Origin: Candidatus Caccovivens sp.
Lineage (GTDB): Bacteria; Bacillota; Clostridia; Christensenellales; UBA1242
Assembly (NCBI GenBank): GCA_045650745.1
Contig: JAZRRN010000049.1
Location: 64,091 to 128,090 of the forward strand
Length of the DNA stretch: 64,000 nucleotides
Reading direction: 5' to 3'
Shown here: positions 4,421 to 47,699 of the stretch, one piece after another
How positions within the stretch are numbered: the first letter of the stretch is position 1
Layout: each line of letters starts with the position of its first letter
Notes under the pieces: generated by a model
Databases searched by the model: none
Told to the model about the DNA's origin: nothing
What the model saw: only the letters and a program-made list of their open reading frames with translations
Position numbers and translations under genes: made by a program

Positions 4421-4495
4421 AAGCATATATAAAAATATAACAGAATAACCTTTCTTGATTTTTTGAGGAAGGATTTTTGTTGAAAGGGGTTTTCT

Positions 4496-5848: not shown

Positions 5849-6137
5849 AAAATAAGTTATGCACATCCAATTTTGTCAAAGTGCATAACTTTTTTTAATT
5901 GCACACACAGTTGTCCACATTTATCCACATACCCCAAACACTATATATAGACAACATTCGACAAATCTCGACACCACATATTGTTGTTTTTGAAATTTGC
6001 AAAAAAGTTATGCACATTTCAACACTCCCTAATAAGGGTTATTGTTACATAAATAAATTAAATAAATAACAAAAAAGGATTGCGTGTGGACAGGCAAGTG
6101 TGGTATAATATGGCTAGATGAAAAGGAGTAAAAAATT
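5849..6137. other. Candidate oriC (DnaA-box cluster in the dnaA-dnaN spacer)
   Basis: Perfect TTATCCACA at 5921-5929. One-mismatch boxes: TTGTCCACA at 5911-5919 and TTATGCACA at 5857-5865 and 6008-6016. Two-mismatch reverse box TGTGGACAG at 6085-6093. AT-rich tract at 6040-6078. Confidence 0.6.
5854..5896 (+). terminator. dnaA intrinsic terminator built from DnaA-box-like arms
   Basis: AAGTTATGCAC (5854-5864) pairs with GTGCATAACTT (5881-5891) and is followed by a T-run. The arms contain TTATGCACA-type boxes. Confidence 0.55.
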
Positions 6138-7238
6138 ATGTTAGTTAGTTGTCACGGAATAGAACTTTCAGATGCTTTCTTGAGTGTAAGCAAAGCAATA
6201 TCAAACAAAATCACAAATCCAATTTTGGAAGGAATCAAAATCGTAGCCGAAGATGATACACTTACTTTGAGTGCCACAGACACAGAACTTTCAATTGAAA
6301 AGAAAATCAAAGCAAACATCAAAACAGAAGGCGAAGCAGTAGTTCCAGGAAAATTTATCACAGAGTTTATTAAGAAGCTCACAAATGAAATGATCGAACT
6401 TGAACTTAATGACAGAAATCAAATGATTGTAAAATACAACGACAGTCAAAGTATCATTCAATGCTATAATGTTTTGGAATATCCATCATTCAAAACTCTT
6501 GAAACAATGGAATATTTTGGAATTGCAAAAAAAGATTTGAAAACAATTATCAACAAAACAATCTTCTCAGTTGCAGTTGATGATTCTAGACCAATCCTTA
6601 AAGGTGTGCTTTTTGATATTGAAAAAAATGTTATCAATGCAGTTGCCCTTGATGGATACAGACTTGCAAAAGTGAAAAAGAATATCGTTTCAGATCTCGA
6701 CATCAACATTGTTATCCCTGCAAAGAGTTTGTCAGAAATTTCAAGACTCTTGGACGACAGTGATGAAATGATCAATGTTTATGTTGACAAAAATGCTTTG
6801 ATGGTAGATTTTGGAGATACAAAACTTACAACAAGACTTCTTGAAGGCGAATTTGTAAAATACAAACAAATCATTGCAGCGAATTATGAAACTGTTTGTG
6901 TTGTAAACAAAGAACAATTTGAAGATGCACTCGAAAGAGCATCGTTGCTTTCAAAAGTTGGACAAGGAAATTGTGTAAAATTTGAAGTGAAAGAAAAGAA
7001 TTTGTGCATCACATCAAATTCAGAACTTGGAAATGTGAAAGAAAATGTGCCTGTAAACATGAAAGGCAAAGAACTTTTGATTGCGTTCAACGCAAGATAC
7101 TTTATCGAAAATTTGAAAGCAAACAATGACGAATTTGTAAAAATCTGCTTCAACGCACCAGCAAACCCATGTGTTATTGTGCCAATTGAAGGAGACGAAT
7201 TCTTGTATTTGATTTTGCCAGTAAGAATGATTGGATAA
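6138..7238 (+). CDS. dnaN: DNA polymerase III beta sliding clamp DnaN
   Basis: 366 aa, located directly after dnaA. Typical clamp sequence (ILEGIKI, LTLSATDTELSIE, RPILKGVLF, DGYRLA, C-terminal LILPVRM). RBS AAAGGAG lies upstream. Confidence 0.92.
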   Translation: MLVSCHGIELSDAFLSVSKAISNKITNPILEGIKIVAEDDTLTLSATDTELSIEKKIKANIKTEGEAVVPGKFITEFIKKLTNEMIELELNDRNQMIVKYNDSQSIIQCYNVLEYPSFKTLETMEYFGIAKKDLKTIINKTIFSVAVDDSRPILKGVLFDIEKNVINAVALDGYRLAKVKKNIVSDLDINIVIPAKSLSEISRLLDDSDEMINVYVDKNALMVDFGDTKLTTRLLEGEFVKYKQIIAANYETVCVVNKEQFEDALERASLLSKVGQGNCVKFEVKEKNLCITSNSELGNVKENVPVNMKGKELLIAFNARYFIENLKANNDEFVKICFNAPANPCVIVPIEGDEFLYLILPVRMIG

Positions 7239-7243
7239 CACTA

Positions 7244-7269
7244 AAAGACATCAAAAGATGTCTTTTTTT
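7244..7269 (+). terminator. dnaN intrinsic terminator
   Basis: AAAGACATC (7244-7252), AAAA loop, GATGTCTTT (7257-7265), then a T-run. Confidence 0.7.
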
Positions 7270-7548
7270 GTTGCAAAAAAGTGACATAAAATGTGGAAAA
7301 GTTGCGTTTTTTGTGTTATTTTTAATAAAATTTTTTATATAAAATTTATATATTTTTATTATATATATAAACAGGCTTTTTTGTTTTATACTATCGCAGG
7401 AAAAAATGGTTTAGATTTTGCGACAGAAAGCGCTAGAATAATTATAAAAAAGAGTCTGTTTGCAGTTGACAAAAATGTTTTTGTCCTGTATAATAAGTCG
7501 GTAAAAGAATTTACACACAAAAATTGCTAAAAGTTTAAGGAGAAGAAA

Positions 7549-7683
7549 ATGAAAAGAACATACCAACCAAAGAAAGGAAAAAGAAAAAAAGTTCATGGAT
7601 TCCGTGAAAGAATGAGAACAAACGGCGGAAGAAATGTTTTGAAGAGAAGAAGAGCTAGAGGCAGAAAACAAATCGCTGCTTAA
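7549..7683 (+). CDS. rpmH: 50S ribosomal protein L34
   Basis: Too short for the ORF track. Translates as [53 protein letters not shown] lies upstream. Confidence 0.95.
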
Positions 7684-7694
7684 AAGATTGAGAG

Positions 7695-8027
7695 ATGGAG
7701 CATAGATTAAGAAAGAATAATCAATTCAACTATATCTACAAAAAGGGCGAAAAAACTCATACAGACAATTTGACACTTTTTGCTGCCAAGAGCAAATATG
7801 AAAGTTACAAAATCGGATTTTCAATAAGCAAAAAGTTGGGCAAAGCACATGAGAGAAATCTTTTGAAAAGAAGGATGAGAGAAATTTCTAGAAAATTTGT
7901 GTCGATTCCTTCTTTTTGTAATTTTGTGGTTTTGGCAAAAGAAAATGCGCCAAAACTCAGTTTTGTTGAATTGAAAGAAGAAATGATTAAGCTGTTTGAG
8001 AAATATGAGAGCAAAAAACATTCTTAA
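7695..8027 (+). CDS. rnpA: RNase P protein component
   Basis: 110 aa, basic, located directly after rpmH. Contains the motif AHERNLLKRRMRE. Confidence 0.85.
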   Translation: MEHRLRKNNQFNYIYKKGEKTHTDNLTLFAAKSKYESYKIGFSISKKLGKAHERNLLKRRMREISRKFVSIPSFCNFVVLAKENAPKLSFVELKEEMIKLFEKYESKKHS

Positions 8028-8268
8028 AAAAATTTGTTTGTTTCCCGTGTATATCTACAAATATGCAATTTCTCCATTGTTGCCACACAGTTGTCTTTTT
8101 ACGCCAACTTGTTCCAACTATATGATCAAAGCTGTCCACGAATTTGGTGTTTTCAAAGGTGGATTGATCGGAATGAAGAGAATTTGCAGATGTGTTCCAT
8201 GGCAAAAGAAGAGAGGGTATGACCCTGTGCCGATAAATATTAAAGGAGATAATATATGGATTTTGTGA
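7996..8268 (+). CDS. yidD: Membrane protein insertion efficiency factor YidD
   Basis: YKYAISPLLPHSCLFTPTCSNYMIKAVHEFG is the conserved YidD core. The gene overlaps the end of rnpA and the start of yidC. Confidence 0.85.
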   Translation: MRNMRAKNILKKICLFPVYIYKYAISPLLPHSCLFTPTCSNYMIKAVHEFGVFKGGLIGMKRICRCVPWQKKRGYDPVPINIKGDNIWIL

Positions 8269-9659
8269 GCACAATCTTGACAACCCTCACACCTCCAAAA
8301 GGAATGTGGGAATCAATTTTGAGTGCTTTCAAGAACGGGACTGGATCTTATGTGTGGGCAGTTATTTTGATTGCCTTGATTGTAAGAGTTGTTTTTTCAC
8401 TTGTTGACATTGTAAACAAGAAAATAACAATGAAAAACTCTGCAATCCAAGAGAAGATGAAGCCAGAACTTGAAGCTATTCAAAAGAAATATGGTCATGA
8501 CAAAACTCTTATGCAACAAAAACAAAACGAGGTTTACAGAAAATATCAATTCAACATGATGGGAAGTTGTTTTCCAATGTTGATCATGATGGTTTTGCAA
8601 CTTGTTGTGTTTATGACTTTGTGGACAGGTCTTCAAAGTGTTGCAAACTACAATATTGCAGAAAAATACGACAATATGAAATCTCTTTACACAAGTGTAA
8701 TCACACTTAATGAAGATGACGATTTCAAAAATTTTGTTGTTGACTATTATCAAGATGGAGATTCTATTTCTGCTGCACTTTCGACAAATGAAGAAGGTGT
8801 TAAGATTTTGAAAGTAGAAATTTCAAATCCAGATGACAATGCACCAGATGTAAGAGAATTTTCTCTTGCAAAAACAGAATTGTCAAACAAAGAAATTTAC
8901 AATTTGCTTTTGAAATATGTCATTGTACCTGAGGTTGAAACAACAGATCCAGCTGATCCAGATGCACCTGCAGAAGGCGAAACAATTGTTGCCTTGGAAG
9001 AAGGATCTGGAGAAGGTGAAGATACAACTCCACCTGCAACAGAACCAACAATCACTTATGTTGACACAGGAATTAATGATGTTGTAAAAGCTTTGGCTGA
9101 AAGTGTTTCTGCACAATATTATGTTGAAAATCAAGAAGGATTTTTGTGGATTGACAACATTTACAAACCAGATGCCCCAAAGAGCTCACTCTTTACAGAA
9201 AGAGAAATCAAGAGATATATGTCAGGTTTCTATTCAGATGAAGAAAAAGCATTGGAAAAAGAACATGACTATGAAGGAAAAATCTTCAATTATGTTGTAA
9301 ACGAAGGCGTTGGAAAGCAAAAATTTGGAAACAATGGTTATTATATTTTGACAATCATCGCTGCGGCAGCATCATTCTTGTCAATGTGGTTGTCAAACAA
9401 GTTGATGAACAAAAACAAACCTGTTGATCCAATGCAAAAGAAATTTAAGATGACTTACTTCATTATGCCACTTATTTTTGCAATCTTTACAATGAGTTAC
9501 ACAAGTTTGTTTGCGATTTATATCATAACTGGACAACTTGTTATGATTGCATTGACTCCACTCACAACATGGCTCACCCAAAAATGGACTCAATCATCTG
9601 AAAAGAAGAAACAAGAAAAAGATGTAATCGTTGTGGATTACAGAAGAAAAGATAAATAA
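8256..9659 (+). CDS. yidC: YidC/Oxa1-family membrane insertase with a large extracytoplasmic insertion
   Basis: 467 aa. TM1 is followed by the coiled-coil loop (KPELEAIQKKYGHDKTLMQQKQNEVYRKY), TM2, an acidic/Pro-rich insert of about 215 aa, then TM3-TM5. Confidence 0.85.
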   Translation: MDFVSTILTTLTPPKGMWESILSAFKNGTGSYVWAVILIALIVRVVFSLVDIVNKKITMKNSAIQEKMKPELEAIQKKYGHDKTLMQQKQNEVYRKYQFNMMGSCFPMLIMMVLQLVVFMTLWTGLQSVANYNIAEKYDNMKSLYTSVITLNEDDDFKNFVVDYYQDGDSISAALSTNEEGVKILKVEISNPDDNAPDVREFSLAKTELSNKEIYNLLLKYVIVPEVETTDPADPDAPAEGETIVALEEGSGEGEDTTPPATEPTITYVDTGINDVVKALAESVSAQYYVENQEGFLWIDNIYKPDAPKSSLFTEREIKRYMSGFYSDEEKALEKEHDYEGKIFNYVVNEGVGKQKFGNNGYYILTIIAAAASFLSMWLSNKLMNKNKPVDPMQKKFKMTYFIMPLIFAIFTMSYTSLFAIYIITGQLVMIALTPLTTWLTQKWTQSSEKKKQEKDVIVVDYRRKDK

Positions 9660-12901: not shown

Positions 12902-13026
12902 AATAAAATTTCTCCTAAAAACAACATTATTATATATTTTGTACATGACTTTTGTCAAATTGATAACTTACTTTACAAATCAAAAAAAATAATGTAAAAT
13001 CTAAGGGTAACAAAAGGAAGAAAGCT

Positions 13027-32818: not shown

Positions 32819-34156
32819 ATGAAAGATTGTATAGTTTCGATATCAACGCCTTTGGGTAAAGGGGCAGTTTCAATTGTGAGAATGAGTGGGGCAAAATCGC
32901 TTGATGTTGCGCTCACACTTTTTCATTGTCAAAAACTTGAAAGAGAAAATATTATCCCAAGATATATGTATTTTGGAAAGATTAAACTTGAAGAAAATGT
33001 GTTTGAAGAATGTTTGATGGTTTATTTTAAGGCACCATTTTCTTATACTGGCGAAGATATTGTCGAGTTTCAAATCCATGGTGGAGTTTTGCTTGCTCAA
33101 AAAATTGTTGAAGCGTGCTTGCATGCAGGCTCTCGCCTTGCCGAACCTGGCGAATATTCGAAGCGTGCGTTTTTGAATGGCAAGATAACTTTGGACAAAG
33201 CAGAAGCAATAATTGGCGAAATCAATGCTGAAACAGAAGGCGAACTTAAAAGCAGTTTGCAAGTCACAAATGGTCGCCTTGCAAGTGCTGTGTTGGAGCA
33301 ACAAGAGCAGTTGAAATATCTTTTGGCCGAACTTGAAGTCGGCATGGATTATCCAGACGAAACAGAAGAGTTGGGATTGAAGCTGAATGTGATTGAAAGA
33401 TTGCAAAAAATTGAAGATGCAAACGATTTGATTTTGCAACAATCACAAAGTGCAACCTATCTTAAAAACGGAATCAATGTCGCACTTGTTGGAAAGACAA
33501 ATGTCGGCAAGAGTAGTGTGATGAATGCTTTGCTTGGAGAAGACAGGGCAATTGTGACAGACATCAAAGGCACAACAAGAGACAGTATTACAGAAAGTTT
33601 TATTTACAACGGCATCAAAATCAATCTTATTGACACTGCCGGCATTAGAGAAACAGAAGATGTTGTCGAAAGCATTGGCATTGAAAAGAGTAAACAAAAC
33701 TTAAACTCTGCCGACCTTGTTTTGTTTGTAGTTGATGGAAGTGAAAGTTTGAGTGAAGAAGATGAAGAAATTTGCAAACTCTTGCAAGGCAAAAAACTTA
33801 TCACAGTTGTAAACAAAACTGACAAACAAAGGGTTTTGGTCGCACAAGAAAACGAAATTGAAGTTTCTGCAATGACAAACAAAAACATTCAACAACTCAA
33901 ACAAAAGATTGTTGATATGGTTATCGAAGAAGAAATTGATTTCAACAGTTTGGTGTTGACAAACGAAAGACAAATGCAGATTTTAAAAGAAGCAAAAATG
34001 TTGATTGAAGAAGTTAAACAAAAACAAAACGAATCTCTCGACATTTTGACAATGCTTGTAAAACGCATTTGGCAAACATTTGGAAAAATCACAGGAAACA
34101 CAGAAAACGAAGATATCATTGATTTGATATTTTCAAAATTTTGCTTAGGAAAATAA
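32819..34156 (+). CDS. mnmE: tRNA modification GTPase MnmE
   Basis: G1 motif GKTNVGKSS, DTAGIRE, NKTD, and the C-terminal FCLGK. Confidence 0.92.
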   Translation: MKDCIVSISTPLGKGAVSIVRMSGAKSLDVALTLFHCQKLERENIIPRYMYFGKIKLEENVFEECLMVYFKAPFSYTGEDIVEFQIHGGVLLAQKIVEACLHAGSRLAEPGEYSKRAFLNGKITLDKAEAIIGEINAETEGELKSSLQVTNGRLASAVLEQQEQLKYLLAELEVGMDYPDETEELGLKLNVIERLQKIEDANDLILQQSQSATYLKNGINVALVGKTNVGKSSVMNALLGEDRAIVTDIKGTTRDSITESFIYNGIKINLIDTAGIRETEDVVESIGIEKSKQNLNSADLVLFVVDGSESLSEEDEEICKLLQGKKLITVVNKTDKQRVLVAQENEIEVSAMTNKNIQQLKQKIVDMVIEEEIDFNSLVLTNERQMQILKEAKMLIEEVKQKQNESLDILTMLVKRIWQTFGKITGNTENEDIIDLIFSKFCLGK

Positions 34157-34160
34157 AACA

Positions 34161-36029
34161 ATGGAAAGAAAAACAGAAATTTTTGATTCGATTGTTATTG
34201 GTGCTGGACATGCTGGCTGCGAAGCTGCGCTCGCCTTGGCAAGAACGGGAAATAAAACCCTCTTGCTCACAATCAGTCTTGATGCAATCGCCTTTTTGGC
34301 GTGCAACCCATCAATTGGTGGCACTGCAAAAGGTCAACTTGTAGGAGAGATTGATGCTCTTGGTGGCGAAATGGGTATCAATGCTGACAAAACGGCAATT
34401 CAAATAAGAATGTTGAATCGTGGAAAAGGTCCTGCTGTGCAAAGTTTGAGAGCGCAAGCAGACAAAAATGCTTATCATATCGAAATGAAAAAAACTCTTG
34501 AAAAAGAGAAAAACTTGTTGGTAAGACAAGGTGAAGCTGTAAGCGTTGAAATTGATGGAGAAAACAAAATTGTCACAACTCAACTTGGCATGAAGTATCA
34601 AGCGAGAAGTGTTGTTTTTGCAACAGGTGTTTATCTCAAAAGTGAGATTATCATTGGCAGTTGCAGAGAAAAAGTTGGACCAAACGGTTTCAAAAACAGT
34701 TCAAAACTCTCTGACAGTTTGAAAAAATTGGGTATCAAACTTGAAAGATTTAAGACAGGCACTCCTGTCCGTGTGCATGCAAGAAGTGTAGATTATTCGC
34801 AAATGGAAATCCAAAATGGTGATGATGACATAATGCCATTTTCTTATATGACAAAAGAAAAACCAAAAAACAAGGCCGTTTGTTATCTTACCTACACAAC
34901 CCCACTTACGCATGAGATAATCAGAAACAATTTTGACAAAGCGCCTGCAATCTCTGGAGAAATCAAAGGCGTTGGTCCAAGATATTGTCCTTCAATTGAA
35001 ACAAAAGTTTTGCGTTTTGCAGACAAAGAAAGGCATCAACTTTTCTTGGAACCAGAAGCGCTTGACACTCAAGAGATGTATTTGCAAGGTTTTAGCACAT
35101 CTATGCCTGCAGACATTCAACAAGAAATGGTTGAGTCTGTGATCGGCATGAAGGATGCTGAAATTATGAGAGATGCTTATGCAATCGAATATGATTGCAT
35201 TGATCCTACACAACTTAAACCTACATTGGAATTGAAGACAATCGAAGGTCTTTTCTTTGCAGGACAAATCAATGGGACAAGTGGTTATGAAGAAGCTGGT
35301 GCGCAAGGATTGATTGCGGGCATCAATGCAAGTCTTTACAACCAAGGCAAAGAGCAAATTGTTTTGAAGAGAAATGATGCGTATATTGGTGTGCTTATTG
35401 ATGACATTGTCACAAAAGGCACAAACGAACCTTATCGTATGATGACAAGTCGTGCAGAATATCGTTTGTTGCTCAGACAAGATAATGCCGACATGAGATT
35501 GACAGAAATCGGCAGAAAAGTTGGTCTTGTTTCTGATGAAAGGTACCAAACTTATCTCGACAAGATTGCAAAGATGAAAGAGATTGAAGCAAAGCTCGAA
35601 GAAAAGGTAAAGGTTGATGAAAAACTTATCAAACTTTGCCAGGATAATGAAGAAAACATTCCAAGAGAAAGTATGAAACTTCGTGATTTGATGAGAAGAA
35701 ACAATATTGATATCTACAAACTTGATGCAACCTACAATTTGTTTGATGAAAGCGAAAAGGGTTTGCTCGATTTTGTAAACATCAACATCAAATACGAGGG
35801 ATATCTTAAACAACAACAAGAAGATGTTGAAAGAATGTTGGCAAACGAAAATGTGTCAATCCCTGAAGATTTTGATTATCAATCTGTAAAAGGATTGAGA
35901 CAAGAGGCTATCGAAAAACTTTCGCAAATTCGCCCACTCAACTTGGGACAAGCGTCAAGAATTTCTGGTGTGTCTCCGGCTGATGTTTCGGTGCTTTCGA
36001 TTTTGGTGAAAAAGACAAACAAAAACTAG
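34161..36029 (+). CDS. mnmG: tRNA uridine 5-carboxymethylaminomethyl modification enzyme MnmG
   Basis: FAD-binding motif VIGAGHAGCEAA, GPRYCPSIE and GQINGTSGYEEA. Confidence 0.95.
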   Translation: MERKTEIFDSIVIGAGHAGCEAALALARTGNKTLLLTISLDAIAFLACNPSIGGTAKGQLVGEIDALGGEMGINADKTAIQIRMLNRGKGPAVQSLRAQADKNAYHIEMKKTLEKEKNLLVRQGEAVSVEIDGENKIVTTQLGMKYQARSVVFATGVYLKSEIIIGSCREKVGPNGFKNSSKLSDSLKKLGIKLERFKTGTPVRVHARSVDYSQMEIQNGDDDIMPFSYMTKEKPKNKAVCYLTYTTPLTHEIIRNNFDKAPAISGEIKGVGPRYCPSIETKVLRFADKERHQLFLEPEALDTQEMYLQGFSTSMPADIQQEMVESVIGMKDAEIMRDAYAIEYDCIDPTQLKPTLELKTIEGLFFAGQINGTSGYEEAGAQGLIAGINASLYNQGKEQIVLKRNDAYIGVLIDDIVTKGTNEPYRMMTSRAEYRLLLRQDNADMRLTEIGRKVGLVSDERYQTYLDKIAKMKEIEAKLEEKVKVDEKLIKLCQDNEENIPRESMKLRDLMRRNNIDIYKLDATYNLFDESEKGLLDFVNINIKYEGYLKQQQEDVERMLANENVSIPEDFDYQSVKGLRQEAIEKLSQIRPLNLGQASRISGVSPADVSVLSILVKKTNKN

Positions 36030-36044
36030 TTTTGGATAGGAAAA

Positions 36045-36743
36045 ATGAAAGATTTAAAAGAGATTTTTGAAAAATACGATATCGAAGTTTCGCAAAATCA
36101 AGCAGATATGTTTGACAAATATTTTTCTATGCTTGTCGAAACAAACAAGCATCTCAACCTGACTGCGATAACCGAAGAGAGAGAAGTTTTGATAAAGCAC
36201 TTTTTGGACAGTGTTTTGCCTGCAAAACTCATTCCTCAAAACGCAACGCTTGTTGATGTTGGCACTGGCGCAGGATTTCCTGCATTGCCTCTGAAAATTG
36301 TTAGGCCTGACCTTAAGGTTTGTTTGGTTGACAGTCTCAACAAAAGGGTAAACTTTTTGAAAGATGTTTGCGGCGAGTTGAAACTTGAAAATATTTCTGC
36401 CCTGCATAGCCGTGCCGAAGATTTTGCAAAAAACCACAGAGAAAAATTTGATGTTGCTGTTGCTCGTGCAGTTGCGCAACTCAACACTTTGGCAGAATAT
36501 TTGTTGCCACTTGTAAAAGTTGGTGGCGTTGCAGTCATCTACAAATCATCAAAACTTGAAGAAGAATTGAAAGATGCAAAAAAAGCTATTGAAATTCTTG
36601 GCGCAAAGGTTGAAAAAATCGAAAAGATTGTTGTTGATGAGGAAAATCTCGAAAGAAATATTTTGGTGCTTAAAAAGGTTAAAAATACACCAAACAAATA
36701 TCCTAGAGACAAAAACAAACCTAAATTAGATCCTATTAAATAG
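36045..36743 (+). CDS. rsmG: 16S rRNA m7G527 methyltransferase RsmG
   Basis: LVDVGTGAGFPALPLKI and RAVA motifs. Position directly after mnmG. Confidence 0.9.
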   Translation: MKDLKEIFEKYDIEVSQNQADMFDKYFSMLVETNKHLNLTAITEEREVLIKHFLDSVLPAKLIPQNATLVDVGTGAGFPALPLKIVRPDLKVCLVDSLNKRVNFLKDVCGELKLENISALHSRAEDFAKNHREKFDVAVARAVAQLNTLAEYLLPLVKVGGVAVIYKSSKLEEELKDAKKAIEILGAKVEKIEKIVVDEENLERNILVLKKVKNTPNKYPRDKNKPKLDPIK

Positions 36744-36854
36744 AAAAATAATAAAAAATTATTCTTAAATTAAAAAATAGGCAAAAATAACGATTTTTTG
36801 CTTATTTTTCTTTATTTTTTTGATGTGTTTATTGTATAATTTGAAAAAGGAAAA

Positions 36855-37685
36855 ATGACTATGGGAAAAATTATTGCATTTGCAAACCAAAAAGGTGGAG
36901 TTGGAAAAACTACAACCTGTATAAATGTTGCAACATATATGGCCCTTATGGGAAAAAGGGTTTTGATTTTGGATTTGGATCCTCAAGGCAATGCCACAAG
37001 TGCTGTTGGTATAACAAAAACCAAAGATCTTAAAACTGTTTACGATCTTATCGGTGGCGAAAGCAACTATGACGATGTTATCAAATCTACGATTGTGAAA
37101 GATTTGTTTATCATTCCTTCAACCGTTGATTTGGCTGGAGCAGAAGTTGAATTGATTCAAATTCCACAAAGAGAAAAGGTAATAAAGAGAATTTTGGACG
37201 AAATTTCAGACAGTTACGACTTTATTTTGATTGATTGTCCACCATCTCTTGGATTGATCACTGTAAATGCTCTTACAGCATCAAACAGTATCATCATACC
37301 AATTCAATGCGAATTTTTTGCTTTGGAAGGTCTTACTCAACTTATGAACACTGTCAGATTGATCAAATATCACCTCAATCCAGATTTGGATGTTGAAGGT
37401 GTTGTAATGACAATGAAAGAAAAGCGTTACAATTTGACAAATCAAGTAAGCAATGAAATTATCAAATTCTTCAACAAAAAAGTGTATTTGACAACAATTC
37501 CAAGAAATGTGAGATTGGCAGAAGCGCCAAGTCACGGTTTGCCGGTGGCATTGTATGACTCAAACTCAAAAGGTGCAGAAGCATATTTGAGTCTTGCTGA
37601 AGAAATTATGAGAAGAAATGGAACTGCGTTTACAAGGATTTCAAAAGTAAAAAAAATAAAGTTTAAAGGGGATAATGATGAGTAG
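36855..37685 (+). CDS. parA: Chromosome partitioning ATPase ParA/Soj
   Basis: Deviant Walker A motif NQKGGVGKTT. Confidence 0.92.
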   Translation: MTMGKIIAFANQKGGVGKTTTCINVATYMALMGKRVLILDLDPQGNATSAVGITKTKDLKTVYDLIGGESNYDDVIKSTIVKDLFIIPSTVDLAGAEVELIQIPQREKVIKRILDEISDSYDFILIDCPPSLGLITVNALTASNSIIIPIQCEFFALEGLTQLMNTVRLIKYHLNPDLDVEGVVMTMKEKRYNLTNQVSNEIIKFFNKKVYLTTIPRNVRLAEAPSHGLPVALYDSNSKGAEAYLSLAEEIMRRNGTAFTRISKVKKIKFKGDNDE

Positions 37686-38619
37686 TAATAAAGGTCTTGG
37701 AAGAGGTCTCGAAGCCCTTTTCGGCGTATTTGATGATAACAATAGTTATGAAAATATAACAAATAAAAGTGCTAAAACAAACAATGGTGTTTTGGAAGTT
37801 GATATAACAAAAGTAAAACCAAATCCAAATCAACCTCGTAAAAATTTTGATCCAGATGCTTTGAACGAACTTGCTTCTTCAATCAAGATTCATGGTATTG
37901 TTCAACCTATCGTAGTTAATCAAGAAAGCAATGGCGAGTATATGATTATTGCCGGAGAAAGAAGATGGAGAGCTGCAAATATTTGTGGTTTAAAAACTGT
38001 TCCTGCAGTAGTTAAAAACTATACAGAAAAACAAGTAAAAGAAATTAGTATTATTGAAAACTTGCAAAGAGAAGATCTCAATCCTATTGAAGCTGCAAGA
38101 GCAATCAAACAGCTTATGGACGAATATGGTCTTACTCAAGAAGTTGTTTCTGAAAGAATTGGAAAGAGTCGTTCAAACATTGCAAACACTCTCAGATTGT
38201 TGACTTTGTATCCAGATGTAATTGACATGGTTGAAGTTGGAAAGCTTTCGGCTGGTCATGCTAGATGTTTGGTTGTTATTGAAGATCAAACCGAACAAAT
38301 TAAGTTGGCTCAAATTGCTGTTTCTAAAAATTTGAGCGTGCGCGACCTCGAAAAGTTGGTTAAAAACTATACGCACCCTACAAATAAAGTGGTGGTAAAG
38401 CAAGAACAGTCGTTGGAATTGAAAGAGTTGATCAATCAAATGCAAAAAACATTTGCAACAAAGGTTTCTGCTATTGGAAATGATAATAAGGGAAGAATCT
38501 ATATTGATTATTATACAAGAGATGATCTTGACAGAATTGCAGAATTGCTCGAATTGCTCAATAAAAAGGAAATGACATTGCAAGATTTGCAAAACTACAA
38601 CAAAAGAACTTCTAAATAA
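37675..38619 (+). CDS. parB: Chromosome partitioning protein ParB/Spo0J
   Basis: GLGRGLEAL, the ParB box IIAGERRWRAA, and an HTH region. Confidence 0.92.
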   Translation: MMSSNKGLGRGLEALFGVFDDNNSYENITNKSAKTNNGVLEVDITKVKPNPNQPRKNFDPDALNELASSIKIHGIVQPIVVNQESNGEYMIIAGERRWRAANICGLKTVPAVVKNYTEKQVKEISIIENLQREDLNPIEAARAIKQLMDEYGLTQEVVSERIGKSRSNIANTLRLLTLYPDVIDMVEVGKLSAGHARCLVVIEDQTEQIKLAQIAVSKNLSVRDLEKLVKNYTHPTNKVVVKQEQSLELKELINQMQKTFATKVSAIGNDNKGRIYIDYYTRDDLDRIAELLELLNKKEMTLQDLQNYNKRTSK

Positions 38620-38640: not shown

Positions 38641-38656
38641 TGTTTCACGTGAAACA
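38641..38656. promoter_or_regulatory. parS site 1 (perfect TGTTTCACGTGAAACA)
   Basis: Exact 16-bp consensus palindrome, embedded in the 26-bp palindrome GAGAATGTTTCACGTGAAACATTCTC (38636-38661) followed by TTTTTT. Confidence 0.9.
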
Positions 38657-38758: not shown

Positions 38759-38774
38759 TGTTTCACGTGAAACA
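38759..38774. promoter_or_regulatory. parS site 2 (perfect TGTTTCACGTGAAACA)
   Basis: Exact consensus, within the 24-bp palindrome at 38755-38778. Confidence 0.9.
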
Positions 38775-40504: not shown

Positions 40505-41092
40505 GTGAAAACAGAAGTAGAAGCAAGATTGTTGGAATGTGATGTAGAAGAAGTGATCAAAAAGTTGAATAAAGCAGGAGCAGAGTTTGTTGGAGATTGG
40601 TTGCAAATAAGAAATTGTTATGACTTTTCGCCAGTGAGAGAAAACAGTTGGATTCGCCTTCGCACAAATGGAGAAGAAACAACTTTGACAATCAAAGAAA
40701 TTGCAACATCAAAAATTGACGGAACTAAAGAAAGTGAGATTGTTGTTTCTGATTTTGCAGCAACAGATGAAATTCTTAATAAATTGGGTTATGTCGCAAG
40801 AAGCAAGCAAGAAAACAGAAGAATTAGATATATGCTTGATGGCGTTGAAGTGGATATTGATTTCTGGCCACAAATCCCTGCTTATGTAGAGTTTGAAGGT
40901 CAAAGCGAAGTGGCGATCAGAGAGGCTTGTCAAAAGCTTGGTATTGATTTTGAAAAACTTACGACAATGGATGTTTCTTCGGTGTATTTGCATTATGGAA
41001 TTGATATTGAAAAACAATCAATTTTGGTTTTGGAAGAAGATAGAAAAAATGCAAAAATAAAAAATAATAAAGAATTGACAAAAAATCGATAA
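40505..41092 (+). CDS. Stand-alone CYTH domain protein (class IV adenylate cyclase / triphosphatase family)
   Basis: GTG start after RBS AAGGAGG. The N-terminal EVEAR is an ExExK-type motif. Size and layout match CyaB-type CYTH proteins. Confidence 0.6.
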   Translation: MKTEVEARLLECDVEEVIKKLNKAGAEFVGDWLQIRNCYDFSPVRENSWIRLRTNGEETTLTIKEIATSKIDGTKESEIVVSDFAATDEILNKLGYVARSKQENRRIRYMLDGVEVDIDFWPQIPAYVEFEGQSEVAIREACQKLGIDFEKLTTMDVSSVYLHYGIDIEKQSILVLEEDRKNAKIKNNKELTKNR

Positions 41093-41291
41093 AAATGAAT
41101 AAAAAAAGCATTTTCCAAATATTTTAATATTCGAAAAATGCTGACAAAAAACAAATTTTTGATAATTAAAAAAAAAGAGACCAACAATCTCTTTTTTTTG
41201 TTGTTTTTTTGATAATAAAATTATATTTAAAATTAATTTTTTTTGAATTTATGTATATTTAATTTTTTATTTTAACAGAGTGATTTTAGGC

Positions 41292-41717
41292 AATAAAAAA
41301 AGAAGTCCGAAAACTTCTTTAGTAGGGACACGCGGAACGCCATATTGTTTTTATATTCCCCATTAATCCACAAATCAACAAAAGATATGTAAGTAAGTTT
41401 GTTGATCCATCAAAGCGATTTTTTTGATGAATTCAAAATATAACGAGTATATCTTGAATATGCAATAACCATGCTCTTACAAGCAAACTTTGACAATTAC
41501 TTGAACTTGTCAGGTTTAGACTGAAAATTGTTGGGTAATCAACTTTTCAGCTTTGAGATAAATCTCAGGTCAGATTATTGTTCTACTATTACCGTGAATC
41601 GTCTTTGGCCATGGCAAACTGTATATTTGAACATCTCAGAACAAACAGTGACACATGTAATACAACATGATATGTTTTTCGGTCAGACTTAACATCAACC
41701 ATTCAAGTGATTAATGT
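41292..41717 (-). ncRNA. Candidate structured ncRNA of about 425 nt, unknown class
   Basis: Minus-strand TTGACA (41752-41747), 17-nt spacer, TATAAT (41729-41724). Terminator AAAGAAGT-TTTCGG-ACTTCTTT plus a T-run at 41320-41292. No SD-preceded ORF. Several 7-12-bp hairpins. Confidence 0.45.
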
Positions 41718-41723
41718 TCAATC

Positions 41724-41752
41724 ATTATACTATATATAAAAAATAATGTCAA
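41724..41752 (-). promoter_or_regulatory. Consensus sigma-70 promoter driving the candidate ncRNA
   Basis: Perfect -35 and -10 hexamers with an exact 17-nt spacer, read on the minus strand. Confidence 0.6.
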
Positions 41753-42185
41753 ACAAATTTTACAACTTTTTTCAAAATTTTTTATTTTTTTTAAAAGGCT
41801 TTAAAAAGTGTTGCATCTGCCAAATGTTAAAAATTTTTCAATATTTTAAAATTGGGTCATTTTTGTCGTTTTGCTTGCAAGGTGGACAAGTCTTTGTTTT
41901 TTGCAAAAAATCGGCATTTTGGGGCATTTTTGGCTATTTTTTAGTATAATTTAAAAATTGTTTTTAATGCAATTTTTGTTTTTTTTAAATTTTGTTAAAA
42001 ATGGTTTTTTGTCTTTGTTTTACGCAAGCAAAAATGTGTGAGCGATAAAATGTTATTATATTTTTTTAATAATATATTTTTTTAATATAACTCTTTTATT
42101 TTGAAAGCAAGTATGCTATAATCTTTTTGTATATTAAACAACACTTAACCTCGTGAGAGATTGAGAAAAACGGAGGAGTTTTGAA

Positions 42186-45100
42186 ATGAAAAAATTTTGG
42201 GTTGTTTTGCCAGTGTTGGCGTTGATGGCTTTGGGAATTTGTTTGCCAAAGGCTGATAAAGTGAACGAATATATCAACAATGCAGAAGCTGGTCCGGTTT
42301 TGGAAGTGTCGGTCGATTCTTTTGATGGATTGAAAGAAGCATTGCGTGCAGAAGAAAATTCTTGCATCACGATTGAAGAAGATATTTTGATTTCAAACAC
42401 TCTTTACACAGGAAATGCAAATTACACAATTTTGGCAAGCAAAGATGTAACTTTGACAAGGGCAGAGGGTTTTGTTGATGATTTGGTTTATATTGACAAA
42501 AACAGCACATTGTCTGTTGGGGAAATTGGATCATCAAACAAAATTGTTTTTGATGGAAATGGTTTGGTGGCAACAGATGTGCCTGCCAGAATTTTTGAAA
42601 ACCACGGAACTTTGAATTTGACAAACGGTGTGTCTGTGACAAATGTTTCTGGAAATATTTCAGGTTGTGCAATTTACAACGCAGGAAATTGCAATTTGGA
42701 CAAAGTTTCAATTCATGACAATGTGATGAATAACGCCAGCGTGTATGCAATGATTTACTCAACAACAGGAGCAAATCTTGTGATCAACAACAGCGAAATC
42801 TTCAACAACAGAGTTGACAACGCAAGTGGTGCTGCAATTTTTGTTAATGTTGGCGGCTCAGCTTGGATTTCTGGAAGTAAATTTTACAACAACACAACAA
42901 ACATGAGAGGTGGCGCAATTGTTGCCAAAGGTTGTGAAATGACAGTAAGAAACTGTCTGTTTTATGAAAACCATGCAGATTATGGTGCAGCCATTCATGC
43001 TTATGAAGGTGGAAATGTAAGTATCAACGGAAGTGAATTTTATGGAAATGTTGCAACACACTATGGGGCAATTTCGTCGATAAGCACAAATCTTTCGTTG
43101 GTGAATGTCAATGTGCATGACAACACTGCAATCAACAAAGGCGGTGCATTGTATATTGAAAGCACAGAAAGTTTGCCTGCAACACTCACTGTCAATGGAG
43201 GAAACTTTTTAAACAATGTTTGTTGGAATGCAGCGCAAAGCAGTGGTTATGGTGGTGCTGTCCACATCAAGAGTCCTTCTACAACAGCAAGCATTTTTGG
43301 TGCAACATTCAAAAACAACAAAGCAGTTTATGGCGGTGCGATTTCAGTTGAAAATTCAAACTTGATGATGGCTGGTGGTCTTGTTGAAGGCAACACTGCA
43401 ACAAATGGCACTGCATCAACAGGATATGGTGGTGGTTTGTATCTCAACACAAATGCACAAGTGGAACTTCACGATGTTGTTATTTCTAAAAACAATGCAA
43501 TCCAAAAGGGTGGTGCTGTCAACTTGTTTGGCGAATCTGACCTTGTGATGTATGGCGCAAAGATTTACAGCAACACTTCTAAATATGGTGCTGGTGTTGG
43601 TGTAGAAAACGGAACTTTCACACAAGAAAGTGGAGAAATTATGTATAATGTTTCTTCTGCTTCTGGTTGTGGGGTTTTTGTAGACAAAGGTTTTTATAAA
43701 CTCAACGATGGAAAATTGTCTTTCAACAAAACGACAGGCTCAAACGGTGGAGCAATCAACAACAAAGACAAAGTTTACATCAATGGTGGAATTATTGAAG
43801 GCAACTCTGCTCAATGGGCTGGTGGTGCGATCCATTCTTACATCAGTGACACATCTGATGATGTCAGAGTTGTTGTGACAGGTGGCACATTTAAAGACAA
43901 CGGAAAAGTTTTGACAATTGATGGCGAAAGTGCAACAGTTGGCGAAGCGTATTCATATTATGGTGGAGCAATCAACATCAACAGTGGACTTTTGCAAATC
44001 ACTGGTGGAACTTTTGTTTCAAACGCAACAACAAAAGATGGCAGCAACAAGTATGGCTATGGTGGTGCTGTTTGCGTGCAAGGTGGCACAGCAGAAATCT
44101 CTGGTGCAACATTCAGTCAAAATGATGCTATCACTGGTGGTGCTGTTTATGTGACTGCCGGAACACTTAAGATTGAAAACTCGATTTTTGAAAAGAACAC
44201 ATCAAAAAAAGAGGGTGGTGCTGTTTATTTGAAAGATGTTGCAGGCACTGTTTCAATCAATGACTGTTTGTTTGATCAAAACACTGCGACCACATATGCT
44301 GGTGCGATTTATACAACAGGTTCGGTTGCAACTTCAAGCAGATCAACATACACAAAAAACATTGCTGTTTCTGGAGCTGGTGCAGTTGCTGTTTATGATT
44401 CGGGTGAATTTGTTGTAAACAGTGGCACATTTTCAGGAAACAATGCGACAGCAGAAGCTGAAGGTGTAAGAGGAAAAGATCTTTACATTTATGGCGCAGC
44501 AAAAGCAACAAGCACAGCAAAAGCGACTGTCAATGGTGGAACATTTGAAAACATTGGCGTGCACTACGGAAAAATCAGTGTTGGTGGAAATGTTTCAGTT
44601 TCAGAAAAGATTATGACTTGGGCTGGTGTTGCAGAAAACAATGTAAACATGATTGTTCATGACGAATTGAAAAATCCAATTGTTTTCTTCTGTCGTTATA
44701 ATGTTTATTCAGACTCACTTACACAAAACTATATGATTCAAATCAACAACAAGACAACAAAAGATCCATTCAAGTTGATTTACAACATTGTTGTTGATGA
44801 TGCGAAAGCATACAACTATTATGTTGATTACAACAGAGAAACAGGCAAAGCAACAATCAAACAATGCGCTTACACAATTTCAAGTCCAACAGATGTTGCG
44901 ATTGCAGTAAGAAAAGGTGCAAACGCAGACGAAGTTGTGACATTTGCTCCTATTGCTGGTTACAGCATTTCAAATGTAAAATACAACGGCATAGAAATTG
45001 TTGCAGATGCAACAGGCGAGTATTCGTTTGTTATGCCAGGATCAAATGTTGAAATCACTTATGATTGCGAGCTTGCTCCGGTTGACATTTTGATTGATGA

Positions 45101-47699
45101 TGATGCAAAAGGATTGTTGAATGTTGTCGAGAAAGCTACACTTGATGCAAGAGTTGAAGTTACTCTTGCAGAAAGCACAACTTGGTTTGTTGACAATGTA
45201 TATTACAACCACAACGGACAAAAAGTTTATTTGACAAACAGACAAGGAAAGTATTATTTTACAATGTTTGATGGCGTGAAACTTTTTGTTGAAAAGACTC
45301 CACTCTATCAAATTGTGTTTTCAGAAAACAATATTCTTGCCGAAGATTCTTCTGCAAGTGTTGATGGCAAAAAGGTTGTCAGCGCTTTGGCTGGAAAAGA
45401 AGTAGAACTTGAAATTTTTGCAAACGACTATAAATATTTGTTGGATATCGAAAATTCTTATTATATGATTGAGGGCGACTCAACAAAACATTCAATCAAG
45501 ACATTAAATTTTGTTATGCCAGAAGCAAATGTTGTGATTTACACAGTTTTTGCAAATGTTTATTCTGACCTTAAAAATGTTGTTGAGGTTTACACTTTTG
45601 AAGAATTGAAACAAGTGTTGACAACTGCGACTGATGCAGACATTATTTTGAAGGCAGACATTGAAATTGGCGAAACAATTACACTTGCATCAAACACAAA
45701 CTATACACTCGTTGCTTTTGGAAACAGAACAATCAAAAGAGCAAGTGGTTTTACAAAAACTATGTTTGTGTTGCCAGAATTTACAAACTTGACTTTGGGT
45801 ATGGAAAACATTCTTGAAGGGGTTGAGTGCAACCTTGTGTTTGATGGAAACTCGACAGTTGTGAAAAACACAGTGGGATCATTGTTTGCAGTGATCAACA
45901 GCTCGCAACTTGTGATGAATGAGTTTGTTACACTTACAAACAACAAAGTTGGCAAAAACGAATATGGATCATTGATTGAGAGAGTTTCTGGAAATGCCGG
46001 TGGTGGCGCATTGATGATCTTTAGTGGCAAGTTTGTTATGAATGGTGGCGAAATCTCATACAACTCAGCAAGTGGCTATGGTGGTGCGATTTACAGTCAC
46101 GGTTATGTAGAACTCAACGCAGGAAAGATTTCTTACAACACTTCAACACTTCATGGTGGTGCGATTTACACCAACAGAGTTTTGCGTATCAATGGTGGCG
46201 AAATTTCTTACAACTCTTTGACAACAAGTGATGCAAATGGTGCTGGCGTGTATTGTGCAAACAACTTCCTTTCAATCATGACAATGACTGGTGGCAAGTT
46301 TGAAGGCAACTCAAGCAAAGCAAGTGCCGGTGCACTTTATATTGGCACAAGAGCAACATTGACAATCTATGATGGCGAATTTGTTGACAATAGATCAAGT
46401 GCTAACAATGCCGGTGCGATTTACTTGTATGGAAAAGCAACTATATACAAAGCAACTTTCAGAGCAAACTATGCAAAAGGCAATGGTGGTGCAATTTATG
46501 TCAACAGTGGCGACACCGTAAACATTAATGGCGAACTTTTTGTCGAAGGTGCAACATTTGACGGAAACAATGCCGGTTATGGTGGTGGTGCGATTGCAGT
46601 TCATCGTTTGGCAACTGCTTACATCAAACATGATGACATCGAATTTAAAAACAACAGCGCAGTTGAAAGAGGTGGTGCGATTTATGTAATGTCAGATTCT
46701 GACCTCGCTCCATCAAAAGCAATTGTGTTGAATGGGCGTTTCCAAGCAAACACAGCAAAAGAAGGAAATGATATTGCAGTGCAATACGGTGTGCTGGAAA
46801 TTGGTGGAAAAGTTTCCAACCTCGATGTTAGGACAGTGGCAAACCCAAGAGCAAACTGTGGATATATCAAAGTGGTTGAAGAGCTTGAAAATTTTGTAAC
46901 AATCAAACCTATTTCTTACACAGTAGACACAATCACAGGTGACAGGTTCTTTAGAGCAGAAGCAGGCGTTGATGTTGCAAACATTTTTGAAAAAGTGATT
47001 ATTCCACAACCATCAAACACAACTTATTGTTTGGTTTACAAAGATGGCGAATTTACTTTGAGAAACAGGGTGTTTATGATCTCTGTTGCAGGAAATTCAA
47101 AAGCAATCAGCGTTGTCCCAAATGCAGACAATGGCGAAGAGGTTGTGATTCAAGTTCAAAATGGCTACAAAGTTTCAAATCTCAAATACAATGGCACAGA
47201 CATTGTTGGAAACAAATTTGTTATGCCAAGAGCAGATGTTGAAATCACATTTGATGCAACATTGATTGAATATCAAATCACAGTTGCAGAAGGTTTGACG
47301 GGTGGACAAATTGCACTTAGTCAAAACAAAGCAACTGTTGAAGATGTTGTGACAATCACTTTGACACCAGATCAAGGTTGGTTTGTGACACAACTTTACA
47401 TCAACAAAACTCTTGTTGAAGTTGAAGGAAACAGCATTGAAATTTTGGTGGAAGCAGATACAACCATTTCAGCAAAATTTGAAAAAATCAAATATATGAT
47501 TTGCTACAATTTCAACTATGACAACAAAACAGAAATGAAGAGTGTTTATGCTGGCGAACTTATCAAAGAAAAAACTCCAACTAGAAAAGGTTTTGAGTTT
47601 GGTGGTTGGTATGTTGACAAAGCATTGACACAGCAATATGACTTTACTGCTCCGGTTTATGGAGTTGTGCAGTTGTATGCAAAATGGACAGAGAAATAA
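42186..47699 (+). CDS. Giant secreted two-module Pmp-repeat (GGAI / FxxN) beta-helix protein with one C-terminal Listeria-Bacteroides repeat
   Basis: 1837 aa. Signal peptide MKKFWVVLPVLALMALGICLPKA. Dozens of GGA[ILV] and FxxN motifs. Internal duplication, with module 2 starting near nt 45590. The C-terminal GFEFGGWYVDKALTQQYDF...LYAKWT is an InlB B-type repeat. Confidence 0.8.
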   Translation: MKKFWVVLPVLALMALGICLPKADKVNEYINNAEAGPVLEVSVDSFDGLKEALRAEENSCITIEEDILISNTLYTGNANYTILASKDVTLTRAEGFVDDLVYIDKNSTLSVGEIGSSNKIVFDGNGLVATDVPARIFENHGTLNLTNGVSVTNVSGNISGCAIYNAGNCNLDKVSIHDNVMNNASVYAMIYSTTGANLVINNSEIFNNRVDNASGAAIFVNVGGSAWISGSKFYNNTTNMRGGAIVAKGCEMTVRNCLFYENHADYGAAIHAYEGGNVSINGSEFYGNVATHYGAISSISTNLSLVNVNVHDNTAINKGGALYIESTESLPATLTVNGGNFLNNVCWNAAQSSGYGGAVHIKSPSTTASIFGATFKNNKAVYGGAISVENSNLMMAGGLVEGNTATNGTASTGYGGGLYLNTNAQVELHDVVISKNNAIQKGGAVNLFGESDLVMYGAKIYSNTSKYGAGVGVENGTFTQESGEIMYNVSSASGCGVFVDKGFYKLNDGKLSFNKTTGSNGGAINNKDKVYINGGIIEGNSAQWAGGAIHSYISDTSDDVRVVVTGGTFKDNGKVLTIDGESATVGEAYSYYGGAININSGLLQITGGTFVSNATTKDGSNKYGYGGAVCVQGGTAEISGATFSQNDAITGGAVYVTAGTLKIENSIFEKNTSKKEGGAVYLKDVAGTVSINDCLFDQNTATTYAGAIYTTGSVATSSRSTYTKNIAVSGAGAVAVYDSGEFVVNSGTFSGNNATAEAEGVRGKDLYIYGAAKATSTAKATVNGGTFENIGVHYGKISVGGNVSVSEKIMTWAGVAENNVNMIVHDELKNPIVFFCRYNVYSDSLTQNYMIQINNKTTKDPFKLIYNIVVDDAKAYNYYVDYNRETGKATIKQCAYTISSPTDVAIAVRKGANADEVVTFAPIAGYSISNVKYNGIEIVADATGEYSFVMPGSNVEITYDCELAPVDILIDDDAKGLLNVVEKATLDARVEVTLAESTTWFVDNVYYNHNGQKVYLTNRQGKYYFTMFDGVKLFVEKTPLYQIVFSENNILAEDSSASVDGKKVVSALAGKEVELEIFANDYKYLLDIENSYYMIEGDSTKHSIKTLNFVMPEANVVIYTVFANVYSDLKNVVEVYTFEELKQVLTTATDADIILKADIEIGETITLASNTNYTLVAFGNRTIKRASGFTKTMFVLPEFTNLTLGMENILEGVECNLVFDGNSTVVKNTVGSLFAVINSSQLVMNEFVTLTNNKVGKNEYGSLIERVSGNAGGGALMIFSGKFVMNGGEISYNSASGYGGAIYSHGYVELNAGKISYNTSTLHGGAIYTNRVLRINGGEISYNSLTTSDANGAGVYCANNFLSIMTMTGGKFEGNSSKASAGALYIGTRATLTIYDGEFVDNRSSANNAGAIYLYGKATIYKATFRANYAKGNGGAIYVNSGDTVNINGELFVEGATFDGNNAGYGGGAIAVHRLATAYIKHDDIEFKNNSAVERGGAIYVMSDSDLAPSKAIVLNGRFQANTAKEGNDIAVQYGVLEIGGKVSNLDVRTVANPRANCGYIKVVEELENFVTIKPISYTVDTITGDRFFRAEAGVDVANIFEKVIIPQPSNTTYCLVYKDGEFTLRNRVFMISVAGNSKAISVVPNADNGEEVVIQVQNGYKVSNLKYNGTDIVGNKFVMPRADVEITFDATLIEYQITVAEGLTGGQIALSQNKATVEDVVTITLTPDQGWFVTQLYINKTLVEVEGNSIEILVEADTTISAKFEKIKYMICYNFNYDNKTEMKSVYAGELIKEKTPTRKGFEFGGWYVDKALTQQYDFTAPVYGVVQLYAKWTEK

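Follow-up and report, generated by a model that had tools for sequence, protein, structure and literature searches.

Large regulatory RNAs built from many hairpins are known from Gram-positive bacteria and include RNAIII of Staphylococcus aureus, with 514 nucleotides (nt), and VR-RNA of Clostridium perfringens, with approximately 386 nt. One other group, that of the OLE, raiA, ROOL and GOLLD RNAs, is made up of large structured bacterial non-coding RNAs (ncRNAs), with functions that are at best partly known, which appear as GC-rich islands in AT-rich intergenic regions, and whose intricate, heavily covarying architectures are found in classes that span orders to phyla (PMC6429828, PMC8632094, PMC10861870). 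The locus described here lies in a window of 64,000 nt, i.e., the whole stretch analysed from contig JAZRRN010000049.1 of a Candidatus Caccovivens sp., to which all coordinates refer. In this window, a 1.1-kb gap is flanked by a CYTH-domain gene (40505-41092, +) and the gene of a giant protein (42186-47699, +). It is very probable that the gap contains a real ncRNA gene, and comparisons with related genomes make it probable that this gene is independently transcribed, as a structured RNA of approximately 424 nt from the minus strand, and that it represents a new RNA family of a genus-level clade.

The predicted unit is similar to RNAIII and VR-RNA in a number of respects, given that it would stand alone with its own promoter and intrinsic terminator, would measure 0.4-0.5 kb, forms a chain of many hairpins, is restricted at the genus level, and leads into no adjacent gene. 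Unlike these regulators, the window RNA has no match in sequence or structure (RNAIII is represented in Rfam, where no match was obtained), contains neither an embedded peptide gene nor the C-rich UCCC loops that are aimed at Shine-Dalgarno sequences, and has a constitutive-looking consensus promoter rather than one of a quorum-sensing or two-component type. The likeness to OLE, raiA, ROOL and GOLLD lies in the long intergenic region with a local rise in GC within a low-GC Bacillota genome, and in a non-coding, structured sequence that is more conserved than its neighbours and has invariant loops, including a GNRA tetraloop. On the other hand, the window RNA differs from these broadly distributed classes in being found in four closely related lineages, in its mostly simple series of hairpins and in the lack of a match to any Rfam model.

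A third comparison is provided by the housekeeping RNAs, among which RNase P RNA and the tmRNA are of a similar size, and which share with the window RNA a consensus promoter, a position near oriC and conservation over the full length. Unlike RNase P RNA, tmRNA, 6S and SRP RNA, however, the window RNA has no defining motif or model match, and sister genera lack it at the syntenic position. Taken together, the sequence comparisons point to a genuinely new RNA family of a familiar kind, which is well delimited, strongly constrained and narrowly distributed. This would add a well-delimited RNA gene, unrecognised by current annotation and Rfam, to an uncultured lineage of Bacillota of the herbivore gut. 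The locus also shows that metagenome contigs alone are enough to confirm a signature of this type, in which a GC island is bracketed by a perfect promoter and a terminator. The restriction to a single genus-level clade limits its wider importance.

The transcription unit and its conservation

A preliminary description of this stretch had proposed, on the minus strand, a TTGACA-17-TATAAT promoter and, approximately 425 nt downstream, an intrinsic terminator, and both are confirmed here (Table 1). The promoter scores 12/12 against the sigma-70 consensus, is accompanied by an A/T-rich stretch upstream, and is conserved in the homologues, all of which have an invariant -35 hexamer and a -10 element that reads TATAAT, TAAAAT or TAGAAT. 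Perfect TTGACA-N16-18-TATAAT sites occur four times in the window, where 0.03 would be expected by chance, with two of the others being located before dnaA (4392) and rpmH (7466), and the fourth, at 12929-12958 on the minus strand, being found where an uncharacterised open reading frame (ORF) has its 5' end. The terminator reads AAAGAAGU-UUUCGG-ACUUCUUU plus a U-run, although the better reading is AAAGAAGUU-UUCG-GACUUCUUU, with a 9-bp stem in which a U.G pair closes the UUCG tetraloop. It was missed by the terminator scanner because this program demands at least three G-C pairs. Two changes have occurred in the terminator of the homologues, a U.G pair having become U-A in L030 and a U-A pair U.G in L031, and in both cases the bases still pair. 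As was also first noted, the segment between the two signals is less AT-rich than its flanks, with a GC content of 0.27-0.37 over 41300-41700, in comparison with 0.12-0.19.

The distribution of this unit was established through the neighbouring CYTH protein, which was scanned against one genome per GTDB species and led to 17 related gut metagenome-assembled genomes (MAGs) labelled "Clostridia bacterium". Among these 17 MAGs, only the closest, L001, from a roe-deer caecum, carries the RNA element. Further copies were retrieved from ENA and Logan contigs by means of CYTH relatives at 83-91% identity and the members of their clusters. The contigs used derive from the roe-deer caecum MAG RGIG3948, from SRR24653676, SRR27608104 and SRR5371511, and from the ERZ272/ERZ286 series. 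Complete copies of the RNA are present in eight other contigs (L001, L028, L030, L031 and L033-L036), with a partial copy in L032, and the family comprises nine distinct sequences, which fall into four lineages of related gut MAGs; the contigs for P0002, P0003 and P0135 stop short of the RNA position. The RNA has a single copy in the window, and is always found at the same chromosomal position beside the CYTH gene.

In the comparisons with L028 and L030, conservation sets in at the -35 hexamer and stops a few bases past the U-tract. The identity of the RNA to the window copy is 96% in L001, 85% in L028 and 90% in L030, and that of the 45-nt promoter block 93%, 84% and 96%, respectively, whereas, in the same order, the coding sequences reach 80%, 76% and 81% (CYTH) or 82%, 74% and 74% (His_Phos), the spacer between the RNA and CYTH 71%, 47% and 68%, and the 200 nt upstream of the promoter 49%, 44% and 44%. 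Taken in 50-nt windows, the RNA is 94-100% identical to that of L001, like the nearby tRNA-Ser gene, and the most divergent pair of copies, L028 and L030, is 84.7% identical. Given that the identity of the RNA exceeds that of both the coding flanks and the intergenic DNA, purifying selection acts on exactly the unit that extends from promoter to terminator.

Conservation of this kind may also be sought in a small protein, or proteins, or in the remnant of a decayed protein gene, and the window does have a 37-codon sense ORF, a 54-codon antisense ORF and one phmmer match with an E-value of 7.8e-07. The 37-codon frame, however, which is indeed the longest sense ATG ORF, as had been reported, lacks a Shine-Dalgarno signal and shrinks to 23 codons in L030, with most of its substitutions being non-synonymous, while the 54-codon frame is interrupted in L030 and suffers a frameshift in L028. 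The four lineages have no ORF of at least 25 codons in common, and the RNA alignment has indels of 1, 2, 2, 2 and 3 nt, which are not confined to multiples of three. The phmmer match is the only one that an exhaustive search with the 54-residue ORF obtained among 1.84 billion representative proteins; it covers 21-29 residues, of which 9-10 are identical, and one RTX/Big_13 repeat protein yields it eight times over. It is an artefact rather than homology. Furthermore, a decayed gene would not surpass its intact neighbours in conservation, and the homologous intergenic segments that the preliminary description had suggested looking for are present in relatives, where none of them carries an intact gene. 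A protein-coding origin is thus hardly credible. The longest ORF anywhere in the 1.1-kb gap has 67 codons, on the plus strand (41746-41949), and was rejected as a Phe-rich translation of A/T-rich DNA that is not conserved in comparison with L001.

Predicted architecture and its support

The structure model was obtained by RNAalifold and manual curation, and comprises 15 helices with 127 pairs, which were evaluated on an alignment of seven sequences, A4. The principal features are listed in Table 1.

Table 1. Coordinates in the window of the predicted RNA gene, its domains and its signals (columns refer to alignment A4)
Feature	Position	Strand	Description
Sigma-70 consensus promoter	41724..41752	-	-35 TTGACA 41752-41747, 17-nt spacer, -10 TATAAT 41729-41724
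Predicted transcript, ~424 nt	41295..41718	-	start inferred 6-7 nt past the -10 element; end in the U-tract
P1 hairpin at the predicted 5' end	41691..41718	-	11 bp, invariant CUUGAA loop, A4 columns 5-32
Rest of the 5' domain	41589..41690	-	17-nt conserved linker AAGUCUGACCGAAAAAC followed by hairpins H2, H3 and H4
Central multi-branch domain	41463..41580	-	H5 closing; H6, H7, H8 and H9 enclosed
Three successive hairpins	41373..41459	-	H10 (12 bp), H11 (7 bp), H12 (10 bp, 15-nt loop CUUACUUACAUAUCU)
H13/H14 stem	41323..41362	-	UGGGGA...UCCCUA plus inner helix, just 5' of the terminator
Intrinsic terminator	41292..41320	-	9-bp stem, UUCG tetraloop, U-tract
Second hairpin, between an A-run and a T-run	41170..41199		GAGA/UCUC stem kept, loop differs (window, L001, L028)

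Across the 15-helix model, 98.4% of the cells of A4 are paired, and double-sided changes were found at five pairs in five helices (A-U to G-C in two cases, C-G to U-A in two, and C-G/U-A in one), in comparison with 1.3±0.9 in shuffled alignments, none of which reached five in 500 trials, and zero in all six slid controls. Two of these compensatory changes lie in the central domain, where A-U is replaced by G-C in H6 and C-G by U-A in H8, and two others in the hairpins that follow it, with H10 gaining a G-C pair in place of A-U and H12 a U-A pair in place of C-G, while in H14 columns 379/394 read C-G, U-A or U-G, depending on the lineage. The covariation of the helices, which had been put forward as a check of the initial proposal, thus exceeds both types of control in these four lineages. 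Together with the homologues and the boundaries of the conserved block, this supports, at the level of sequence, the original proposal of a structured ncRNA of approximately 425 nt that belongs to no known family.

The individual hairpins that had been proposed fared differently. The 12-bp ATTCAAGATATA hairpin, in which the homologues change A-U to G-C, and the 9-bp (9-10-bp) ATCAACAAA hairpin, in which they change C-G to U-A, were both upheld, whereas the CATCAAA/TTTGATG and CTGAAAA..GTTG hairpins are invariant in the homologues, and hence uninformative. On the other hand, the TTGAACAT/ATGTTCAA helix, which was thought to close a 5' domain, has a 5' arm that overlaps the predicted start at approximately 41718, and two of its pairs are broken in L030. 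The GCCATGGC palindrome was likewise not retained, given that it is lost in L028, which has GCCACGGT in its place.

In the 15-helix model, P1 has four one-sided changes, all of which preserve pairing, with 98.7% of its cells paired, and the linker that follows is variable at 2/17 positions. The central domain contains invariant blocks of 29 nt and 26 nt, with the loops AUUACC in H7, GUUCAAGUAA in H8 and a GUAA tetraloop in H9, and the covariance model R1 finds this domain in the four lineages only. The loops that are invariant in the homologues are CUUGAA, AUUACC, GUUCAAGUAA, GUAA and UUUA. Three helices, H3, H10 and H12, are remodelled in L030 or L028 with their folding retained, as in the top of H3, which becomes UUUGAUU/AAUCAAA in L030. 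The H6 helix, by contrast, shortens to 3 bp in L028 and L030, with a fold that is no better than shuffled sequence (z -0.13). As judged from the alignment, the RNA appears to tolerate only pair-preserving changes in its hairpin chain and its multi-branch domain.

The orientation of the fold also bears on whether the conserved block acts as RNA. The minus-strand RNA has a predicted folding energy of -104.4 kcal/mol (z -2.7), and the plus strand of -92.5 kcal/mol (z -2.0). Approximately 14 pairs of the model are G.U, and these pairs therefore exist on the minus strand only. A conserved DNA element, such as a region where a regulatory protein binds to control the surface-protein locus, or a site of replication, partition or recombination, would accord with a location that is oriC-proximal, near parAB and at the border of a synteny breakpoint, and one word similar to a DnaA box is present at 41364. 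However, it is a promoter and a terminator that mark the limits of the conservation, the compensatory changes preserve hairpins, and many of the pairs are G.U, which the opposite strand would present as A.C mismatches. The DnaA-like box is single and has a mismatch, the true parS sites are at 38641 and 38759, and the window contains no repeats or other copies of the element. An element that functions as DNA is therefore very improbable.

A distinctly unlikely alternative is that of a cis-acting or conditional element, which may be either an orphan riboswitch-like sensor, in which the 5' linker would control the terminator and permit read-through to the second hairpin, at approximately 41170, or a transcript that would serve to interfere with the divergent surface-protein locus. 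In the RNAalifold result for the seven sequences, the terminator has its 3' arm paired with the linker (AAGUCUGA...AAAC), the window and L001 share 88-94% identity over the 90 nt past the terminator, and the RNA is arranged back-to-back with a variable cluster of cell-surface genes in every lineage. The linker-terminator duplex (-9.2 kcal/mol), on the other hand, is no better than those of other 17-nt windows of the RNA, and 3.9% of shuffles do as well or better. Each of L030 and L028 breaks one of its pairs, whereas the two changes seen in the terminator both leave the terminator hairpin itself intact, and the post-terminator segment is conserved in neither L028 nor L030. There is, in addition, nothing downstream to regulate, given that the convergent CYTH gene, with its 3' end, is the feature that follows, in agreement with the first description, which had seen no downstream gene on the same strand. 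Neither a regulated gene on that strand nor an Rfam match to a riboswitch, T-box or leader family was found.

Two candidate tertiary contacts were observed in the course of the modelling. The P1 loop CUUGAA (41702-41707, A4 columns 16-21) is exactly complementary to the UUCAAG of the H8 loop (41500-41505, A4 columns 218-223), although a kissing interaction of this type, with 6 bp, arises in 8.7% of loop shuffles and is not significant. The other is a long-range helix, GCCAUG/YAUGGC, between 41610-41615 and 41339-41344 (A4 columns 108-113 and 379-384), which shows a U-A to C-G double change in L028 and a G.U to G-C change in the L001 group, and which competes with H4 and H14. When all the compatible covarying stacks were enumerated, too many chance candidates were obtained at a depth of four lineages.

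Known families, distribution and possible function

The search of Rfam 15 (4227 models) at gathering thresholds returned, for the whole window, two tRNA-Ser genes only, and ARAGORN likewise returned these two genes and no tmRNA. When the threshold was relaxed to E <=10 for the region and its two most divergent homologues, the best scores were 10-24 bits, in comparison with thresholds of 35-229 bits, and the RNase P models RF00010 and RF00011 gave no match at this level in any of the three. These results agree with the preliminary description, which had found no signature of RNase P, tmRNA, SRP or 6S RNA and had proposed the Rfam search as a check. The sub-threshold matches are mostly to models of eukaryotic C/D-box snoRNAs, with 15-24 bits against thresholds of 43-50, and lie on the minus strand at 41512-41593 of the window, 1708-1801 of L030 and 2357-2448 of L028; they are almost certainly compositional, reflecting CUGA and UGA words.

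A housekeeping RNA (RNase P RNA, tmRNA, 6S or SRP RNA) that has diverged beyond recognition would nevertheless be consistent with the length of approximately 424 nt, which fits RNase P RNA or tmRNA, and with the very strong promoter and the position near oriC. Given that the organism encodes RnpA, an rnpB gene must exist somewhere. The word ACAUGGCUU in the L001 group resembles the 3' strand of helix P4 of the type-B RNase P RNA, but this word is not conserved, reading AUAUGGCGUU in the window and GUGGCAUCU in L028. No Rfam match to any of these four housekeeping RNAs was obtained at E <=10 for three divergent copies, ARAGORN recognises no tmRNA, and the copies have no GGAAAGUCC, no tRNA-like end, no tag ORF and no P4 or CR-I/CR-V motifs. 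An RNA of this type would also not be missing at a CYTH identity of <=75%, although it could lie elsewhere in those genomes. Altogether, the chances of a disguised housekeeping RNA seem very slight.

In the relatives with a CYTH identity of <=75%, which include 16 species (L002-L017) as well as L029 and L057-L061, the locus has no large gap and the neighbours are different, and searches of these relatives with nhmmer, blastn and covariance model R1 gave no RNA match at the locus, for which reason the family looks genus-level, although the searches were poorly suited to more distant or relocated homologues. Scans of JGI metagenomes for exact words gave no match for a 20-mer and 15 for an 18-mer, all by chance, while similar scans of IMG/VR gave 0, 0 and 3 matches, the latter also by chance. 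From these comparisons, the clade that carries the RNA looks like a genus-level group of uncultured, low-GC Bacillota of the herbivore gut labelled "Clostridia bacterium". In L002, a 560-nt gap (8871-9432) is found upstream of another giant ORF and has a terminator-like hairpin on the minus strand at approximately 9033-9062. This gap has no similarity to the window RNA, and its hairpin may mark an unrelated small RNA.

A narrow and patchy distribution next to a variable locus is also what might be expected if the RNA belonged to a defence system or a mobile element, for instance as an omega RNA or orphan guide RNA, as that of a retron, or as a toxin-antitoxin RNA. However, no effector is linked to it, in that no transposase, reverse transcriptase, nuclease or toxin gene accompanies the RNA in any lineage, and PADLOC found no match among five nearby proteins, which included CYTH and His_Phos. 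The blastn search against 72,556 plasmids and 50,697 phages returned no match to the RNA, and the IMG/VR scans, as noted above, gave none or chance ones. The single copy and the constant chromosomal position beside CYTH equally speak against mobility, and an origin of this kind is given very little credence.

With regard to function, the perfect promoter and the position approximately 37 kb from oriC suggest that the RNA is abundant. Given that no gene follows on the same strand, and that the lineages share no protein gene that always accompanies the RNA, action in trans would be the most likely mode, and a role as a trans-regulator is proposed tentatively, at somewhat less than even confidence. 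Such a regulator may use its invariant loops and its linker (CUUGAA, AUUACC, GUUCAAGUAA, CUUACUUACAUA and AAGUCUGACCGAAAAAC) for base-pairing or, alternatively, may bind a protein. The predictions of duplexes between the whole RNA and 47 gene starts were uninformative.

A number of points weigh against the proposal of a new, structured RNA family that acts in trans. The absence outside the clade is drawn from synteny and exact-word scans alone, and the z-scores of the minimum free energy are modest (-2.7). The covariation is thin, given that it derives from four lineages that are 85-96% identical to the window copy, with most pairs never varying, and related sequences can exceed the A4 shuffle control, which is not tree-aware, without any structure. 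With regard to trans action, no conserved pairing to the 5' untranslated region of the giant gene was found, the windowed predictions matching different segments of the RNA in each lineage, and the duplex predictions revealed no target or partner, with no anti-Shine-Dalgarno or repeated GGA motifs being present. Finally, uniform conservation over the full length is less typical of small RNAs whose base-pairing is driven by a seed.

A rather unlikely possibility is that the RNA is the first representative of a new class of large RNAs with tertiary structure, e.g., an RNA-protein scaffold or a catalytic RNA. The hints in this direction, none of which is significant alone, are the uniform conservation of 424 nt above that of the neighbouring proteins, the invariant loops and the GNRA tetraloop, to which the P1/H8 kissing contact and the GCCAUG/YAUGGC helix may possibly be added. 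If this were true, more distant homologues would exist that are invisible to exact-word searches. An RNA with 424 nt that evolve more slowly than the adjacent enzymes, under a promoter of the grade of those of dnaA and rpmH, is probably abundant and needed in its exact shape.

Gene neighbourhood and adjacent signals

The carriers of the RNA share a constant left flank, with genes for rubrerythrin, tRNA-Ser, His_Phos and CYTH, the last of which is convergent with the RNA. An exact look-up of the CYTH protein returned no record. The right flank, by contrast, is variable. The window, L028 and L030 have the giant protein with PMP repeats (61% identity in L028), which in the window has 1837 residues and Chlam_PMP/Flg_new repeats, whereas in the L001 group an Acyl_transf_3 acyltransferase gene is inserted first, before a different giant PMP-repeat protein that is merely 28% identical. 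The DNA on the promoter side (41753-42185 in the window and 7295-8750 in L001, and also in L033-L036) is a synteny breakpoint, with the homology to L001 ending at 41784, and the region looks like a fast-evolving cell-surface locus. A protein search with the N-terminus of the giant protein returned nothing, probably because it was swamped by the repeats. An extended -10 element (TGCTATAAT) at 42113-42121, approximately 65 nt upstream of the ATG of the giant gene, is likely to be the promoter of this surface-protein gene, and lies approximately 360 nt from the RNA promoter, in the opposite orientation.

The RNA locus belongs to the oriC-proximal region of the chromosome. The replication-origin genes are found at 4392-9659 (dnaA, dnaN, rpmH, rnpA, a yidD-like ORF and yidC), and mnmE, mnmG, rsmG, parA and parB are found further along the window (32819-38619). 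Two perfect parS sites (TGTTTCACGTGAAACA), at 38641-38656 and 38759-38774, lie directly 3' of parB (37675-38619), and it is these sites that give rise to the short repeated matches in the window.

On the terminator side, the A/T-rich 90 nt that follow the RNA (41201-41291) show the high identity to L001 mentioned above, in a context where other intergenic DNA is 34-70% identical; this could represent read-through sequence or simply a recent shared ancestry. The second hairpin beyond this segment (Table 1) is probably a bidirectional terminator of the convergent CYTH gene, which would also serve as a backstop for read-through from the RNA.

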